Positions 46,333-56,568 of a stretch of 64,000 nucleotides of DNA are shown here, in pieces; within the stretch, counting starts at the first letter, position 1; each line of letters starts with the position of its first letter. Location: NCBI GenBank assembly GCA_002431905.1, contig DJER01000007.1:15019-79018 (forward strand), read 5' to 3'. Both the position numbers and the translations under genes were made by a program. Source of the DNA: Christensenella sp. UBA5893. Lineage in GTDB: Bacteria > Bacillota > Clostridia > Christensenellales > UBA1242. Below the pieces are notes generated by a model, which was not told where the DNA came from, did no database searches, and saw nothing but the letters and a program-made list of their open reading frames with translations.

Positions 46333-46533
46333 TTATTTTGTAAGCAAAGTTAAATAACTGTTTCGTTGTCGCAAAAAAGCATTTTCTTTTGCTAATTGTT
46401 CATTTTTAATTTTTTCGCCCATAATGAGCCTATTGGAACTTCTTATTTCTTCAATCAATCTATGTTTCAATAATTCTATTTCATTTTCTAGTTGTTTTAT
46501 ATAATCTAATGTATTTGTATTAACTCTAATCAT
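46333..46533 (-). CDS. Prophage small coiled-coil protein
   Basis: 66 aa with heptad-like LENEIELLKHRLIEE. Overlaps the upstream gene by 8 nt. Confidence 0.5.
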   Translation of the reverse strand: MIRVNTNTLDYIKQLENEIELLKHRLIEEIRSSNRLIMGEKIKNEQLAKENAFLRQRNSYLTLLTK

Positions 46534-47164
46534 TTTTTTGTTTTTTCTCCTTGTTTGATTTTAATTTTTGATATGCTTTTTGCAATTCCCAAACTATGTT
46601 TAATAGTTGGTTTTTTGTCTTTGTTTCAAAATATGAATATTCATATTCTTGTTTTGGATCATAAGCCATTGGAATATCGTCTTCGTTAATAGTTGTATCT
46701 TCAATAACTTTTTCGGCTTTGTCAGAGCCGTCTTTTAATGTTTTAATGTATTCACGAATTTGTTTAACTGTCATAGTTGGTTTTATGAATTGTTTTTTTA
46801 CAAGTTCGTCTGATGTTTCAGAAGATAGAACTAACAATTCAAACAACTTACTAGGTGAAAAGTCTTTGTAATCATTAAGTAAAACATTTGCACCTTGTAA
46901 AACAAATCTTTCATAACATTGCTTATATCTATTTACTGCTTTTTTATCAAAGCCAAACTTTGCAAGCAACTTGTATGAATTATAATATTCATTGTTTTTT
47001 GCTTTGAAATAACTCTTTTTGCAATAACTCCAAATATCATATATAGTTTTACAAGTTTGGCAAAAGTTTATCTGATTATCTTCGAAACAATCTTGTAATG
47101 CAAGCATTAAAAGATGTAATTCACTATCTTCAAAATCTAAATCACTTTTTATAAATTCTTCCAT
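46526..47164 (-). CDS. Prophage hypothetical protein (212 aa)
   Basis: AGGAGAAAAA RBS. No motif recognised. Confidence 0.55.
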   Translation of the reverse strand: MEEFIKSDLDFEDSELHLLMLALQDCFEDNQINFCQTCKTIYDIWSYCKKSYFKAKNNEYYNSYKLLAKFGFDKKAVNRYKQCYERFVLQGANVLLNDYKDFSPSKLFELLVLSSETSDELVKKQFIKPTMTVKQIREYIKTLKDGSDKAEKVIEDTTINEDDIPMAYDPKQEYEYSYFETKTKNQLLNIVWELQKAYQKLKSNKEKKQKND

Positions 47165-47231
47165 TTTTTCTCCTATTAAATTTTTTATTAAAACTATTGA
47201 TTTTAAGATTATATTGTTATATAATTACATC

Positions 47232-47335
47232 GAAAGTTGAGTGAAAAGGAATTTATTCCCAATTCGTAATATGTGTTGTAATTTATTTACATTGAACATT
47301 CTTTCGGAGAAGATAAGCAATTATCTTCTTTTTTT
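47232..47335 (+). ncRNA. Candidate ~105-nt sRNA antisense to the phage operon (promoter TTGATT-17-TATAAT at 47197-47225)
   Basis: Near-consensus promoter. 9-bp terminator stem AGAAGATAA/TTATCTTCT with a GCAA tetraloop and T-run (47308-47335). Internal GGAA-TTTA-TTCC hairpin. No RBS-preceded ORF. Confidence 0.4.
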
Positions 47336-47641
47336 ATTGTCATTTGAAATTATGTAATCAATAATACTTTTATCTTTACTGTGTATTCTGTGCTTTTTAT
47401 ATTCAGTTTTACTACGATATGTATTGTATTTTTGATTTTCAACTTTTGTTTTTACATAACAATCTCTTTTGTCATTTGGGTCAATGTTATAATGCAATTT
47501 TTTCTTTTCGGCTTTATCTTTTGAGTTATGAGTGAAGCCTAAAGATTTTACATATGCTTTCCTTTGTCTGTAAGCATAAGAAACATGTCCGGTTTGTTTA
47601 TTCATAACAAAGCCCCTAATTTGTTTAATCTTCTTTGCCAA
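47321..47641 (-). CDS. Prophage small basic protein (106 aa), distant paralog of 56020..56427
   Basis: K/R-rich. Shares the pattern L-x-Y/G-x-(I)-(D)-P..K..Y.K ... HSKD..I.D.I with the 135-aa protein. Confidence 0.5.
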   Translation of the reverse strand: MAKKIKQIRGFVMNKQTGHVSYAYRQRKAYVKSLGFTHNSKDKAEKKKLHYNIDPNDKRDCYVKTKVENQKYNTYRSKTEYKKHRIHSKDKSIIDYIISNDNKKRR

Positions 47642-47652
47642 TATTTTCTCCT

Positions 47653-48639
47653 TTAAAAAATATTATTTATCTCTTCAATTTCTTTTTGTGATAAAGGAAT
47701 AAAACCTTTATCAATACAATTTTTGACACTATTGTCTTCCCAATATTGCAAAATATTATGTTCTTCATTGTAGTTAGCAAAATCAGCATTTTGAAAATGT
47801 GGGTTATTAGACATAATGTCTTTTATATTTTTTGGTGTGTCAAAATCTGCACCTATAAGTCTATTTACAATGGTCGGAATATTAAGATTTTTAGAATAAA
47901 AAAATCTTTTCTTAAATATCTCTGTCGACTTTCCTATATCTTTATTTATATACTTTTTAACATAACTATTACATCTTTCACGACTTGCAATTCTTGTTAC
48001 CGTTGTTAGTCCATATGGAAATGTTGTTACATTGTATACGGCTAGTCCGTCAGTATCTTGTAATTCATGTTCGCTTTTAGTCCTTTCAAAGAACTCACGG
48101 CTTGCTATTTTATTTTTATAGTAAGCCCACGAACAACAAACTTTTCCAGAATTTACAAGTCCAAGTTGTTTTGGTGTAAGTCCTGCAATAAGCAAATGAA
48201 AATGTATACAACCGTCTTCGTGTCTTTCGAGAACAGTTAGATATTTAAAACTAGGGAATTGGTGTTTTACATTGTTAATATATTTTACATAAGCATTGTA
48301 AATTAACTCGTCGTTTGTTCTATCTATCTTTTCTTTATCAAAGGTAAGTGTAGCGAACCAATCAAAATCATTCATTTCAAGAAGCATATTCATTAAAATT
48401 TTTGTTCTTCTTAGTGAACTTGCAAGCGAATTTTGAACATCACTTTTTTTATAATAATTAAGTTCGCCGGTTTCCAAATCTAATTTATATCTTATTCCGT
48501 CCAAATCGTATGGTCGACTTTTCTTTTCTGCTTGTTTCTTATTTGATTTAAAATATAAAGAAGTTAAAGTCTTATCTCTAAATATTCTATCTTTTTGAAA
48601 CAAGTAATAGGCAGTTTTTTGTTCTTCTTTATCTTTCAT
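47653..48639 (-). CDS. Rolling-circle replication initiator (HUH endonuclease)
   Basis: Start set at MKDKEEQ behind GGGAG. Motif 1 FATLTF, HUH motif CIHFHLLIAG, Tyr motif SYVKKYINKD. Confidence 0.8.
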   Translation of the reverse strand: MKDKEEQKTAYYLFQKDRIFRDKTLTSLYFKSNKKQAEKKSRPYDLDGIRYKLDLETGELNYYKKSDVQNSLASSLRRTKILMNMLLEMNDFDWFATLTFDKEKIDRTNDELIYNAYVKYINNVKHQFPSFKYLTVLERHEDGCIHFHLLIAGLTPKQLGLVNSGKVCCSWAYYKNKIASREFFERTKSEHELQDTDGLAVYNVTTFPYGLTTVTRIASRERCNSYVKKYINKDIGKSTEIFKKRFFYSKNLNIPTIVNRLIGADFDTPKNIKDIMSNNPHFQNADFANYNEEHNILQYWEDNSVKNCIDKGFIPLSQKEIEEINNIF

Positions 48640-48855
48640 AAAAACTCCCATTTTATTTTTTATTCCGTTGAGTGTTACTATTGTCAAGTAGAGTAACACT
48701 CTCGCACGGGGCACGGGTAAACCCTTGGCCCCAGTGCGAAAATGCTATCGTTAGACTACTTGCTTTCTTTTCTTGGGCTCTGCCCAAACCCGCAAGGAAC
48801 TAGTCCCTTGACCCGTTTATCACTCGCCGTTAGGCAACCAAACCCCGAAACAATG
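48640..48855. other. GC-rich hairpin-dense intergenic region: candidate replication origin / packaging signal
   Basis: Perfect 10-bp stem at 48670-48701 (GAGTGTTACT/AGTAACACTC). Stem CGCACGGGGC/GCCCC(A)GTGCG at 48703-48738. CAAGG/CCTTG around ACTAGT at 48793-48810. Locally much more GC-rich than its surroundings. Confidence 0.5.
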
Positions 48856-55630: not shown

Positions 55631-55904
55631 CCTTAACAAAACTATGTAGTTTTTTATTATTGTCTAAATAATAGAATGAAAATATATTTTTATCAATGTG
55701 CCTTACTTCCATAGTTCCAAATGGACTATTAAGTAAAGACTTTTTTATTCTATATATCCTTTGATATTCAGTTTTCAAAATATCTTTTTTCTTAACATAT
55801 TCTAATTTGCTTTCATCAATTTCAATATCTAAATAGTATTTATTTTCTATCTTAATTATCTCATTCATAATTTCTCCATTTTGTTTGTCATAAAGGGTTG
55901 ACAT
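55614..55904 (-). CDS. Prophage hypothetical protein (96 aa)
   Basis: ORF with an ATG start. No motif recognised. Confidence 0.4.
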   Translation of the reverse strand: MSTLYDKQNGEIMNEIIKIENKYYLDIEIDESKLEYVKKKDILKTEYQRIYRIKKSLLNSPFGTMEVRHIDKNIFSFYYLDNNKKLHSFVKVINIP

Positions 55905-55932
55905 TTATATTTGAATAATATATAATGTAATC

Positions 55933-56018
55933 GTTCTTAATGAACTACACATTATTTGTGTAAGGCTTATAACTTTTGTTTATAAGCACCAGAGCCGTAT
56001 GGATGGCTCTTTTTTTTA
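55933..56018 (+). ncRNA. Candidate ~85-nt three-hairpin sRNA (consensus promoter TTGACA-17-TATAAT at 55898-55926)
   Basis: Perfect -35/-10 hexamers with 17-nt spacing. Hairpins TACACA/TGTGTA (55946-55962) and GCTTATAA/TTATAAGC (55965-55987), then terminator AGAGCC/GGCTCT plus T7 (55991-56017). No ORF. Confidence 0.45.
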
Positions 56019-56019
56019 T

Positions 56020-56427
56020 TCACTTACGCTTTTTAAATTTGTCATATTGTTTAACATTGAATTGTTTAGTTTTTGCTTTTTTAAATATAGTATCTCGAAT
56101 AGACTCAACATCTTTATGCGAAACATCCATATTTTTATGGTTTTCTCTAAACTTTTCATTAACTCTAATTGGACGACCTTCATTATCTTCAATTTCTAAA
56201 TAGTGCTTATAATATGTTTTTTGTTTAGTTCTAGGGTTTCTATAACCTTTCAACTCAGTTCTATTTGCACCTTTCTTTGAAGATAAGGGGACAACTGCTA
56301 AATCTTCATTATTTGTGTCAACCACTACAACAGGTCTTGTTTTGTAAGACTTTGTTTTTTGTTTGCCCAAAAAGTTATCTTTGGTTGTCAAAGTTCGTCC
56401 CCAAGGTATAAACCTTTTCTTTTTCAA
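56020..56427 (-). CDS. Prophage basic protein (135 aa), distant paralog of 47321..47641
   Basis: TTG start behind AAGGAG. Contains RPVVVVDTNNEDLAVVPLSS and a K/R-rich C-terminus. Confidence 0.5.
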   Translation of the reverse strand: MKKKRFIPWGRTLTTKDNFLGKQKTKSYKTRPVVVVDTNNEDLAVVPLSSKKGANRTELKGYRNPRTKQKTYYKHYLEIEDNEGRPIRVNEKFRENHKNMDVSHKDVESIRDTIFKKAKTKQFNVKQYDKFKKRK

Positions 56428-56445
56428 ATATCAATCTCCTTTATC

Positions 56446-56568
56446 CTAGTAATATCTTTTTCTAATTCTAATTTTTCTTCTGTGAGAACGGTTTGCTTTT
56501 CTAGCACCACATCTACAACCCGAAGCAAAAGCAGTCTTTAAATCTTGCTCTGTGTATCTTCTTGCCAA
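56446..56568 (-). CDS. Very basic 40-aa peptide (MARRYTEQDLKTAFASGCRCGARKANRSHRRKIRIRKRYY)
   Basis: Own translation. TTG start behind GGGGGTG. Below the track cutoff. Confidence 0.3.
   Translation of the reverse strand: MARRYTEQDLKTAFASGCRCGARKANRSHRRKIRIRKRYY

Follow-up and report, generated by a model that had tools for sequence, protein, structure and literature searches.

A filamentous prophage of gut Clostridia with insertion-sequence-type ends that probably integrates by DDE transposition

How does a filamentous phage of a Gram-positive gut bacterium enter the chromosome, and does a transposase gene found beside such a prophage belong to it? The question is raised by a 64,000-nucleotide stretch of the genome of Christensenella sp. 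UBA5893 (GenBank assembly GCA_002431905.1, contig DJER01000007.1, positions 15,019–79,018), which we call the window and in which a preliminary description, made from the letters alone, placed a prophage collinear with the Ff filamentous phages at 46333–56568 and an IS30 transposase gene flanking it. We find that the element runs from window position 45003 to 56668, that terminal inverted repeats bound it and that the transposase gene lies within these repeats as its integration module. On the gene families, the ends and inverted repeats, the target duplications and target geometry of relatives, the conserved origin structure and the circular contigs of sister phages, we conclude, with a probability of roughly 0.8, that window 45003–56668 is an integrated inovirus-like (Tubulavirales-type) filamentous phage of uncultured, Christensenellales-like gut Clostridia that integrates by DDE transposition and not by site-specific recombination.

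Results

Insertion-sequence-type ends enclose the phage genes and the transposase gene

A fuzzy search with both end sequences delimited an element of 11,666 bp at window 45003–56668, and the limits given in the preliminary description had cut off both of its ends. When the window was compared by blastn with seven loci in other contexts, homology started at 44998–45004 and stopped at 56668–56713 every time, and multiple alignments of both ends revealed an abrupt switch from conserved to unrelated sequence; the ends are fixed independently by at least seven insertions. The end next to the transposase gene carries a terminal inverted repeat, IRR (45003–45034; plus strand TGAAAAGTCAAGAAAATATAGCAAAAAAATAG), with an outward-facing TTGACT 5 nt from its tip. 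The tip itself, ...CTTGACTTTTC(A), is kept even in copies from G+C-rich hosts with ~53% transposase identity. The other terminal inverted repeat, IRL (56637–56668; minus strand TGTAAAGTTTTACACTTATAGCAAATAAGG), lies upstream of the phage genes, and the two are imperfect inverted repeats with identity at 19 of 30 positions. A repeat finder run over the whole region had lost them in A+T-rich noise, and they were revealed by comparing insertion with insertion.

The IS30-family DDE transposase gene (45203–46234, minus strand) encodes a protein with the Pfam domains HTH_38 and rve. Its open reading frame (ORF) at 45371–46234 yields 287 amino acids (aa) and then meets an in-frame TGA at 45371–45373, past which a further 55 codons stay in frame to 45203, placing the stop after 287 of 343 codons. 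At the TGA, the relative L015 (loci in other genomes carry L numbers) has arginine, reading ERGTNERLNRE against ERGTNE*LNRE in the window, where the asterisk is the stop. The window transposase reaches 157.5 bits on the NCBIfam IS30 model NF033563 (cut-off 80), covering profile positions 2–230 of 267, and the full-length allele of L003 reaches 210 bits. Position and orientation of the transposase gene are constant in at least 16 loci from different genomes, and no inverted repeat was found between it and the phage genes, where the best match was 16/30.

Long target duplications flank the whole unit in relatives

Close relatives occupy unrelated contexts, with L003 beside rpoB, L022 beside tRNA-Leu and L021 beside a SAM riboswitch. 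The phage block occurs in many unrelated chromosomal contexts and is therefore mobile; vertical synteny across distant relatives was among the findings that the preliminary description had named as counting against a prophage. Target duplications, scored in relatives with both element ends on the contig, measured 15–17 bp in L003 (ACAAATTAGTTACATT), L015 (ATAAAAACCTTACTAAC), L016 (TTTATTTAAACTTTTT) and L023 (AACGCTTTTTGTTTT), and likewise in three copies from G+C-rich hosts, L063 (GCGCTCAGCGCGCGGC), L071 (GGCGGCGGCGCCAGGGG) and L094 (ATTTACGGGCGGTATT), in which the boundary between element and flank is unmistakable. The duplications flank an entire unit of 10.1–14.0 kb and not the transposase, figures far from the 2–3-bp duplications and 1–1.7-kb length of typical IS30 members. 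Because the inverted repeats and the duplications enclose the whole phage, we assign the transposase to the phage; the earlier placing of it as a flanking gene does not hold.

Two relatives differ at their ends. The L022 element (14,034 bp) is ~2.4 kb longer than the others, has no duplication and is accompanied by a serine-recombinase homologue beyond its IRR side; this copy is probably rearranged. In L056, the IRR end sequence occurs twice at ~11492–11647 with a masked run of N between, which could mean that the end is tandem or nested or that the assembly is at fault. We also considered the large serine recombinase encoded at window 56771–58309 as the phage integrase and rejected it, as it lies outside the inverted repeats, is absent beside the closest relatives L003 and L015, and has its L022 homologue on the other side.

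The element encodes filamentous-phage functions in an Ff-like order

Once the map is closed into a circle, the Ff-like gene order of the preliminary description is borne out: Rep, accessory genes, IS30-family transposase, IRR/IRL, regulatory region, OB-fold protein, two small membrane proteins, terminator, three N-terminally anchored proteins, Zot/pI-like ATPase, a 141-aa protein, the origin and again Rep. All the minus-strand ORFs it had listed are present, with overlaps of 4, 4 and 8 nt at 52904–52907, 49278–49281 and 46526–46533, and encode 104, 64, 52, 462, 170, 761 (770 from the first TTG), 272, 141 and 328 (353 from the first GTG) aa.

The two proteins for which profile searches had been proposed both found their families. 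The rolling-circle replication initiator (Rep; 328 aa, 47653–48639, minus strand), an HUH protein with a two-tyrosine YVKKY motif, matched Pfam REP_ORF2-G2P (PF23343) with 41.3 bits, above the gathering cut-off of 27.8 (E = 1.9e-10), and PHROG 3419, a family of rolling-circle initiators (1.7e-16); the motifs IHFHLLIAG and YVKKYINKD, noticed earlier, are both in its sequence. We take the tyrosine motif to be that of phiX174 gpA, as a lead only. The Zot/pI-like morphogenesis ATPase (272 aa, 49278–50096, minus strand) has an N-terminal P-loop, its Walker A motif being APPRTGKT at residues 7–14 as had been read, and matched the Zot-like PHROG 197 (7.4e-9). A profile built from 20 of its homologues matched a single PDB entry, 2R2A, the N-domain of Neisseria Zot (1.7e-5); the Pfam Zot model was borderline. 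Translationally coupled to this gene, and always found with it, is the gene of the 141-aa protein (48856–49281, minus strand).

The remaining genes of the block are candidates for virion and assembly functions. The 761-aa protein (50099–52384, minus strand), a candidate adsorption protein, is N-anchored by a transmembrane segment at residues 12–40 (770-aa frame numbering) and continues with a coiled coil and at least four Listeria–Bacteroides (Flg_new) repeats (Pfam Flg_new, 1.3e-27); internal 402-nt repeats were detected here. Two further N-anchored proteins, of 462 and 170 aa (52395–54292, minus strand), vary among relatives in a cassette-like way and are candidate minor virion or assembly proteins. 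An intrinsic terminator (54315–54365, minus strand; −20.2 kcal/mol, z = −3.6) lies directly 3′ of the 52-aa ORF, which encodes, together with the 64-aa ORF (both within 54365–54731, minus strand), two small hydrophobic proteins that are candidate coat proteins, the 52-aa protein being the more widely conserved. By a simple hydropathy scan, the 64-, 52-, 462-, 170- and 761-aa proteins each have a single hydrophobic segment, at the N-terminus, and the 104-, 272- and 141-aa proteins have none; with the fold z of the terminator, the scan confirms the two tiny hydrophobic proteins, terminator and three anchored proteins previously described. In Pfam and PHROG searches, the 462-, 170-, 64- and 52-aa proteins had no family match, and the same searches of the element's proteins found no mob, relaxase or coupling-protein gene, the mob genes being what the preliminary description had named as the mark of a plasmid.

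For the soluble 104-aa protein (54746–55060, minus strand), AlphaFold2 predicts an OB-like fold, b1-b2-b3-a-b4-b5, with a pLDDT of 88.5. The best Foldseek matches of this model were bacterial single-stranded DNA (ssDNA)-binding proteins and baculovirus LEF-3, with E = 0.01–0.1 and TM 0.4–0.5 in both libraries. The gpV fold, with which a comparison had been proposed, was not among the matches, and, because the E-values are only 0.01–0.1 and TM 0.4–0.5, we regard an ssDNA-binding role as plausible and go no further.

The intergenic origin region (48640–48855, minus strand), 216 nt before rep, contains four conserved hairpins, at 48793–48810, 48772–48788, 48703–48738 and 48670–48701. The last, the putative plus-origin hairpin, is nearly invariant and exposes a 12-nt loop, CTACTTGACAAT, at 48680–48691. 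As the preliminary description had it, the region is hairpin-rich and GC-rich, with a G+C content of 0.53–0.60 against ~0.30 nearby and a DNA fold z of −4.3; its conservation (98% in L015, 93% in L003) exceeds that of the flanking genes. Across 37 pairs and 12 sequences, pairing is kept in 97% of cells, and both sides have changed in 10 pairs, compared with a mean of 3.7 after shuffling (0/500 shuffles reach 10) and 0–4 in slid controls. The loop holds CTTGA, a putative nick motif of the phiX174/pC194 initiator type. If the Ff intergenic region is a guide, the complementary-strand origin and the packaging signal may lie among the remaining hairpins.

Sister phages carry another transposase and occur as circles

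Sister phages have the Zot, Rep, origin and structural genes in common with the window element and carry, in the same slot, a 330-aa IS481-like transposase (NF033577, 158 bits, below the equivalog cut-off). Integrated sister copies (L024, L026 and L036) are flanked by 25–26-bp duplications, and others occur as circles: L103 has a 99-nt terminal overlap that closes an 11,677-bp circle, L113 has a 55-nt terminal overlap, and L107, L108 and L112 are permuted contigs containing the joined ends. The junction in L103, L107 and L108 reads ...CAGTTGACATATTTGCA-C-TGTTTTTATATAATCTGG... and contains TTGACA-17-TATAAT with the −35 and −10 elements contributed by opposite ends; it is a classic junction promoter of a circular insertion sequence (IS). 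L112 and L113, whose ends were not mapped independently, have TTGACA-17-TACAAT at the equivalent place, and the circles of bajarodino viruses 74 and 13, deposited phage genomes to which we return below, have an IRR-like TTCTTGCAATTCA and an IRL-like TGTAAATTTATA 11 nt apart, giving TTGCAA-17-TAAATT. A circle of the window type would join ...CTTGACTTTTCA to TGTAAAGTTTTA..., a junction promoter that can be drawn with a 2-nt or a 10-nt spacer alike. A scan of IMG/VR for the IRR–IRL junction pattern returned two chance matches, neither with phage genes.

A further subtype (L009, L011, L014, L027–L029, L041–L043 and others) has no transposase. It carries instead a large serine recombinase in divergent orientation, accompanied by a repressor of LexA-like (Peptidase_S24) type and a small sigma-70 region-4 protein, and its Rep is a different one, missed by a tblastn search that used the Rep of the window. 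The integration and replication modules of this phage family are exchanged as cassettes. Individual copies carry additional DNA between rep and the origin hairpins or Zot: in L016, a ~650-bp insertion (8330–8982) splits the intergenic region, and L103 has an N6/N4 DNA methyltransferase-like gene (7487–8095) as extra cargo.

Insertions lie at a fixed distance upstream of outward promoters

The flank on the IRL side contains an outward-reading sigma-70-type promoter in 11 of 11 independent IS30-type insertions (window, L003, L015, L016, L021, L022, L023, L032, L063, L071 and L094), with promoter scores of 10–12 out of 12 in ten insertions and 8 in L022. The distance from IRL to the start of the −35 element is 36–38 nt in eight insertions, 26–27 nt in two and 34 nt in one. 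In the same sequences, promoters scoring at least 10/12 start at 4.5e-4 of positions per strand, and the finding of eight of eleven −35 starts within a 3-nt interval cannot be chance (binomial ~1e-20 by our estimate). Because the sequence between IRL and the −35 element is unconserved, is G+C-rich in L063, L071 and L094, and begins with a duplication lying directly against the repeat, these promoters are host DNA. In the window, the host target outside the element is the promoter TTGACA-17-TATGAT (56705–56733, plus strand), which reads away from IRL and drives tRNA-Asn (56760–56834, plus strand; Rfam 65 bits). Insertion spares the core promoter, and the phage genes are always divergent from it.

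The IS481-like sisters L024, L026, L036, L105 and L106 have an outward promoter 29–30 nt from IRL, read by eye and not by script, with weaker matches in L024 and L105. Because these sisters also show promoter adjacency, targeting of one kind is seen with transposases of two families. Tentatively, and at slightly under even odds, we propose that a filamentous-phage lineage has made its replicative form into a self-replicating IS minicircle that inserts upstream of host sigma-A promoters at a set distance and without change of orientation; from the −35 element this distance is about 36 nt with the IS30-type transposase and about 29–30 nt with the IS481-like one. One possible cause is that host promoters mimic the phage IRR–IRL junction, itself a −35/−10 pair; tethering of the transposase to RNA polymerase that is bound at the promoter is another. 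To our knowledge, insertion at a fixed distance upstream of promoters has not been described for IS30-family elements or inoviruses, and a literature search, which was not exhaustive, found no report of promoter-proximal targeting by either.

Accessory genes, a small-RNA candidate and the neighbourhood

Downstream of rep lie three accessory ORFs of 106, 212 and 66 aa (46333–47641, minus strand); the 212- and 66-aa proteins are conserved across IS30-type relatives, and the former matches PHROG 15077, a family of unknown function (3.3e-10). The variable regulatory and accessory region at 55313–56574 holds a 105-aa ORF (plus strand), 96-, 135- and 42-aa ORFs (minus strand) and a small-RNA candidate at ~55933–56018 (plus strand), which has a 12/12 promoter (55898–55926), a terminator (55991–56010), three hairpins and a fold z of −5.1 and runs antisense to the interval that separates the 135-aa gene from the 96-aa gene. 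Its promoter and RNA body are kept in L015, L021, L022 and L036, and in L022 the stem of the terminator differs and is still paired; of the two antisense RNAs proposed earlier, one (55898–56018) is supported. An Rfam scan found no match inside the element and only the neighbouring tRNA outside it. The 135-aa protein (56020–56427, minus strand), conserved in several relatives, weakly matches a PHROG of MazF-like growth inhibitors (E = 0.0055, 17.6 bits) and may be a toxin-type accessory gene.

Beyond IRL, tRNA-Asn (plus strand) overlaps the last ~21 codons of the 512-aa ORF of the large serine recombinase (56771–58309, minus strand), after which come, up to ~64000, an ORF of 109 aa, a ResIII-helicase-like protein of 1120 aa and an ORF of 452 aa. 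The stretch from 56760 to ~64000 looks like a second integrated element or defence island attached at tRNA-Asn; because the 3′ part of tRNA-Asn has no second copy elsewhere in the window, this island cannot be delimited. Far outside the element, the window has a 2485-aa ORF (12484–19941, minus strand), and a 3348-aa ORF adjoins the L003 prophage.

Distribution and relation to known systems

Homologues of the Zot-like protein form more than 800 clusters at 90% identity, and 158 GTDB species genomes carry relatives; by title, nearly all of these genomes are Clostridia, Christensenella or Christensenellaceae. Two carriers are cultured, Pumilibacter muris CLA-AA-M08 and P. intestinalis CLA-AA-M10 (loci L075, L082), and their copies look like the serine-recombinase or other subtypes. 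The relatives of Zot and Rep in a phage database are all faecal-virome records that are annotated as, or resemble, small filamentous phages. The sole match of the Zot-like protein in a tblastn search of 50,697 phage records was bajarodino virus 12, and the only relatives of Rep were those of several bajarodino and Dulem inovirus records (28–31% identity). Bajarodino viruses 12, 74 and 13 are recorded as circular Inoviridae genomes of 9.3–10.2 kb and have a Zot (31% identity); viruses 74 and 13 have an IS30-family transposase (41–42% identity) in the order Zot-Rep-(x)-transposase, whereas virus 12 has a tyrosine integrase in place of a transposase. The bajarodino and Dulem phages, unclassified Inovirus genomes from rodent and lemur faecal viromes, are distant relatives and have a much higher G+C content; their records give neither a host nor ends, target sites or duplications.

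With Ff (M13/fd/f1), the element shares the order of replication, putative ssDNA-binding, small coat-type, terminator, anchored-protein, pI-type ATPase and structured origin functions, with the core genes all on one strand. It differs in that ~4 kb of DNA with accessory, regulatory and transposase functions separates rep from the candidate ssDNA-binding gene; Ff, for its part, is episomal and has the secretin pIV, a membrane segment in pI, another Rep and another nick site. Propionibacterium B5 and Clostridium CAK1 are filamentous phages of monoderm hosts that lack a secretin, and the Zot-like tblastn search of the phage records revealed no similarity to either.

With IS30 of Escherichia coli and IS1630, the element shares a DDE transposase of the same family and imperfect terminal inverted repeats, but it is an 11.7-kb unit whose cargo is a complete phage with its own replicon and which inserts at a constant position upstream of promoters. 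The duplications of IS30 itself are 2 bp long, and it uses palindromic hot spots or its own ends as targets. It moves by copy-out-paste-in through a circle with abutted inverted repeats, and IS minicircles of this kind are unable to replicate (PMC9333248). IS1630, an IS30-family element of Mycoplasma fermentans, makes 16–26-bp duplications (PMC3317919) and, going by the title of a paper cited there (Calcutt et al. 1999), targets inverted repeats.

Filamentous phages that use a transposase already form a genus recognized by the ICTV, Vespertiliovirus of the Plectroviridae (PMC8295915), which is thought to integrate by transposition and to package a genome that is a circular transposition intermediate (PMC8295915, PMC6668415). 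Its member Spiroplasma SpV1-R8A2B, a filamentous or rod-shaped ssDNA phage from the Firmicutes/Mollicutes lineage, likewise has an IS30-family transposase, ORF3, which is 27.5% identical over 98% of the window transposase. Vespertilioviruses, however, are described without a Rep (PMC8295915, PMC6668415), infect wall-less mollicutes in which UGA encodes Trp and reach at most 8.3 kb, whereas the window element has an HUH Rep and a hairpin origin, a host that is clostridial going by the record titles of relatives, ORFs that are intact under the standard code and a length of 11.7 kb. No similarity to their structural proteins was detected, the Zot tblastn having matched only bajarodino virus 12.

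The preliminary description had seen novelty in the small number of characterized Gram-positive filamentous phages. Inovirus-like sequences have, however, been found in many phyla, and those of Firmicutes already predicted at scale, by Roux et al. (2019), who grouped transposases as 'integration or selfish element', the two being inseparable by sequence alone (PMC6813254), and circular Zot–Rep–transposase genomes have already been deposited as Inoviridae. The kind of prophage is therefore known. What is new is the combination of a full rolling-circle replicon within IS-type ends, long duplications, interchangeable IS30-type and IS481-like modules and fixed-distance insertion upstream of promoters, with promoter-proximal targeting as the unexpected part.

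A 2026 preprint describes a 15-kb Pumilibacteraceae element that carries an 'inovirus gp2' gene, direct repeats of 15 bp and, at one of its edges, an IS30. This element was enriched in the virus-like-particle fraction and left unclassified, with its mobilization unexplained. This element may belong to the same phage family; its 15-bp repeat was not found in 105 loci, a locus of the same species included.

Discussion

We suggest a life cycle in which the double-stranded replicative form, carrying both inverted repeats side by side, would be the equivalent of an IS30 minicircle and, unlike an IS minicircle, would replicate itself by rolling circle from the hairpin origin before rep. The transposase would paste this circle into the chromosome, leaving a 15–17-bp target duplication, upstream of a sigma-A-type promoter, with IRL ~36 nt from the −35 element and the phage genes pointing away. 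Copy-out from the chromosome would regenerate circles with no excision; the OB-fold protein would coat the single strands, and the Zot-like ATPase with the anchored proteins would extrude them through the membrane with no need of a secretin.

Several observations weigh against a transposing filamentous phage. As to transposition, the window transposase is interrupted, its copy has no recognizable target duplication, and the IRR junction is identical in a strain that is 88.8% identical over 1.1 kb. Searches with the M23 peptidase and the 150-aa neighbour and a metagenome scan found no empty site: no exact record matched the M23 peptidase, the two contigs obtained with the 150-aa neighbour were filled, and in the metagenome scan the M23 protein matched a filled site in the 88.8%-identical strain, a contig that ends inside the M23 match and thus has no downstream flank, and a distant species with no synteny. 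Among close IS30-type relatives, no circular or junction contig was found. As to the phage, no virion of this lineage has ever been observed, neither the Zot protein nor its profile found a match in two scans of IMG/VR, and on the Pfam Zot model the 272-aa protein reaches 19.8 bits, short of the 20.3-bit cut-off by 0.5 bit. In the hydropathy scan, neither this protein nor its 141-aa partner has the membrane segment of Ff pI. No protein could be assigned as the major coat protein, the usual basic C-terminus being absent from both small proteins, and the OB-fold match of the 104-aa protein is statistically non-significant.

Part of this evidence may concern the state of one copy. The identical IRR junction recurs in three other assemblies, and because the 88.8%-identical strain has it too, a long history of vertical inheritance is probable for the window copy. 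The family may thus transpose while the window copy is a grounded or domesticated remnant that has lost integration, and perhaps copy-out too, and is kept or tolerated by the host. We consider this close to an even chance, though short of it: the nonsense codon, the missing duplication and the shared junction point that way, but all ORFs besides the transposase are open, the origin hairpins and both inverted repeats are intact, the truncated transposase retains the DDE region up to ERGTNE, and the transposase of another copy could act in trans. A grounded copy is compatible with integration of the family by transposition and refines it; the window copy is probably old and unable to integrate unless a transposase is supplied in trans.

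Two other explanations depart from a transposing filamentous phage altogether. An unrelated IS30 might have landed by chance beside an inovirus prophage that has an integration route of its own, as could be thought from the abundance of IS30-family elements, which are often beside prophages, from the pseudogene state of the window transposase and from the fact that selfish and domesticated transposases are indistinguishable by sequence alone (PMC6813254). A chance landing is, however, already contradicted, and we hold it to be very improbable: at least 16 loci have the transposase in the same place and orientation, the whole 10.1–14.0-kb unit and not the transposase is bounded by the inverted repeats and duplications, the best repeat between transposase and phage genes is the 16/30 match, and the circular bajarodino genomes hold Zot, Rep and transposase together.

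The element might instead be no virus, but a transposon that carries a rolling-circle plasmid replicon with membrane and surface proteins, its Zot-like P-loop protein exporting DNA or protein and forming no filaments. The lack of an identified coat protein, of a membrane segment in the Zot-like protein and of relatives in IMG/VR speaks for this, as does the preprint's leaving a possibly related Pumilibacteraceae element unclassified; the nick-site-like loop and two-tyrosine Rep also resemble phiX174/pC194-type replicons, which occur on plasmids too. Exchange of modules has been described (PMC6668415). Against it, the operational signature by which inoviruses are detected is just such a Zot-like ATPase accompanied, in Ff order, by small membrane proteins and large anchored ones (PMC6813254), faecal viromes are the source of the Zot and Rep relatives in databases, of which bajarodino viruses 12, 74 and 13 are classified as Inoviridae, the preprint's element is enriched in virus-like particles, and relaxase, coupling-protein and mob genes are absent. 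We judge a non-viral element unlikely, and keep to a filamentous phage that integrates by transposition.

For this lineage, the ambiguity between passenger and integrase that the large inovirus survey left is resolved: the transposase is the phage's own. It also offers a candidate mechanism for the particle-packaged element of the 2026 preprint, with its IS30 at the edge and its 15-bp repeats. The targeting rule, a fixed distance and orientation with two transposase families, is testable and might serve programmable insertion. If true, it would be a bacterial counterpart to the safe-haven targeting by which Ty3 and Dictyostelium retroelements insert upstream of tRNA genes, and the junction promoter would switch the phage genes on in the circular form only, in a phage family that is common in gut Christensenellales-like Clostridia, a group with almost no characterized phages.

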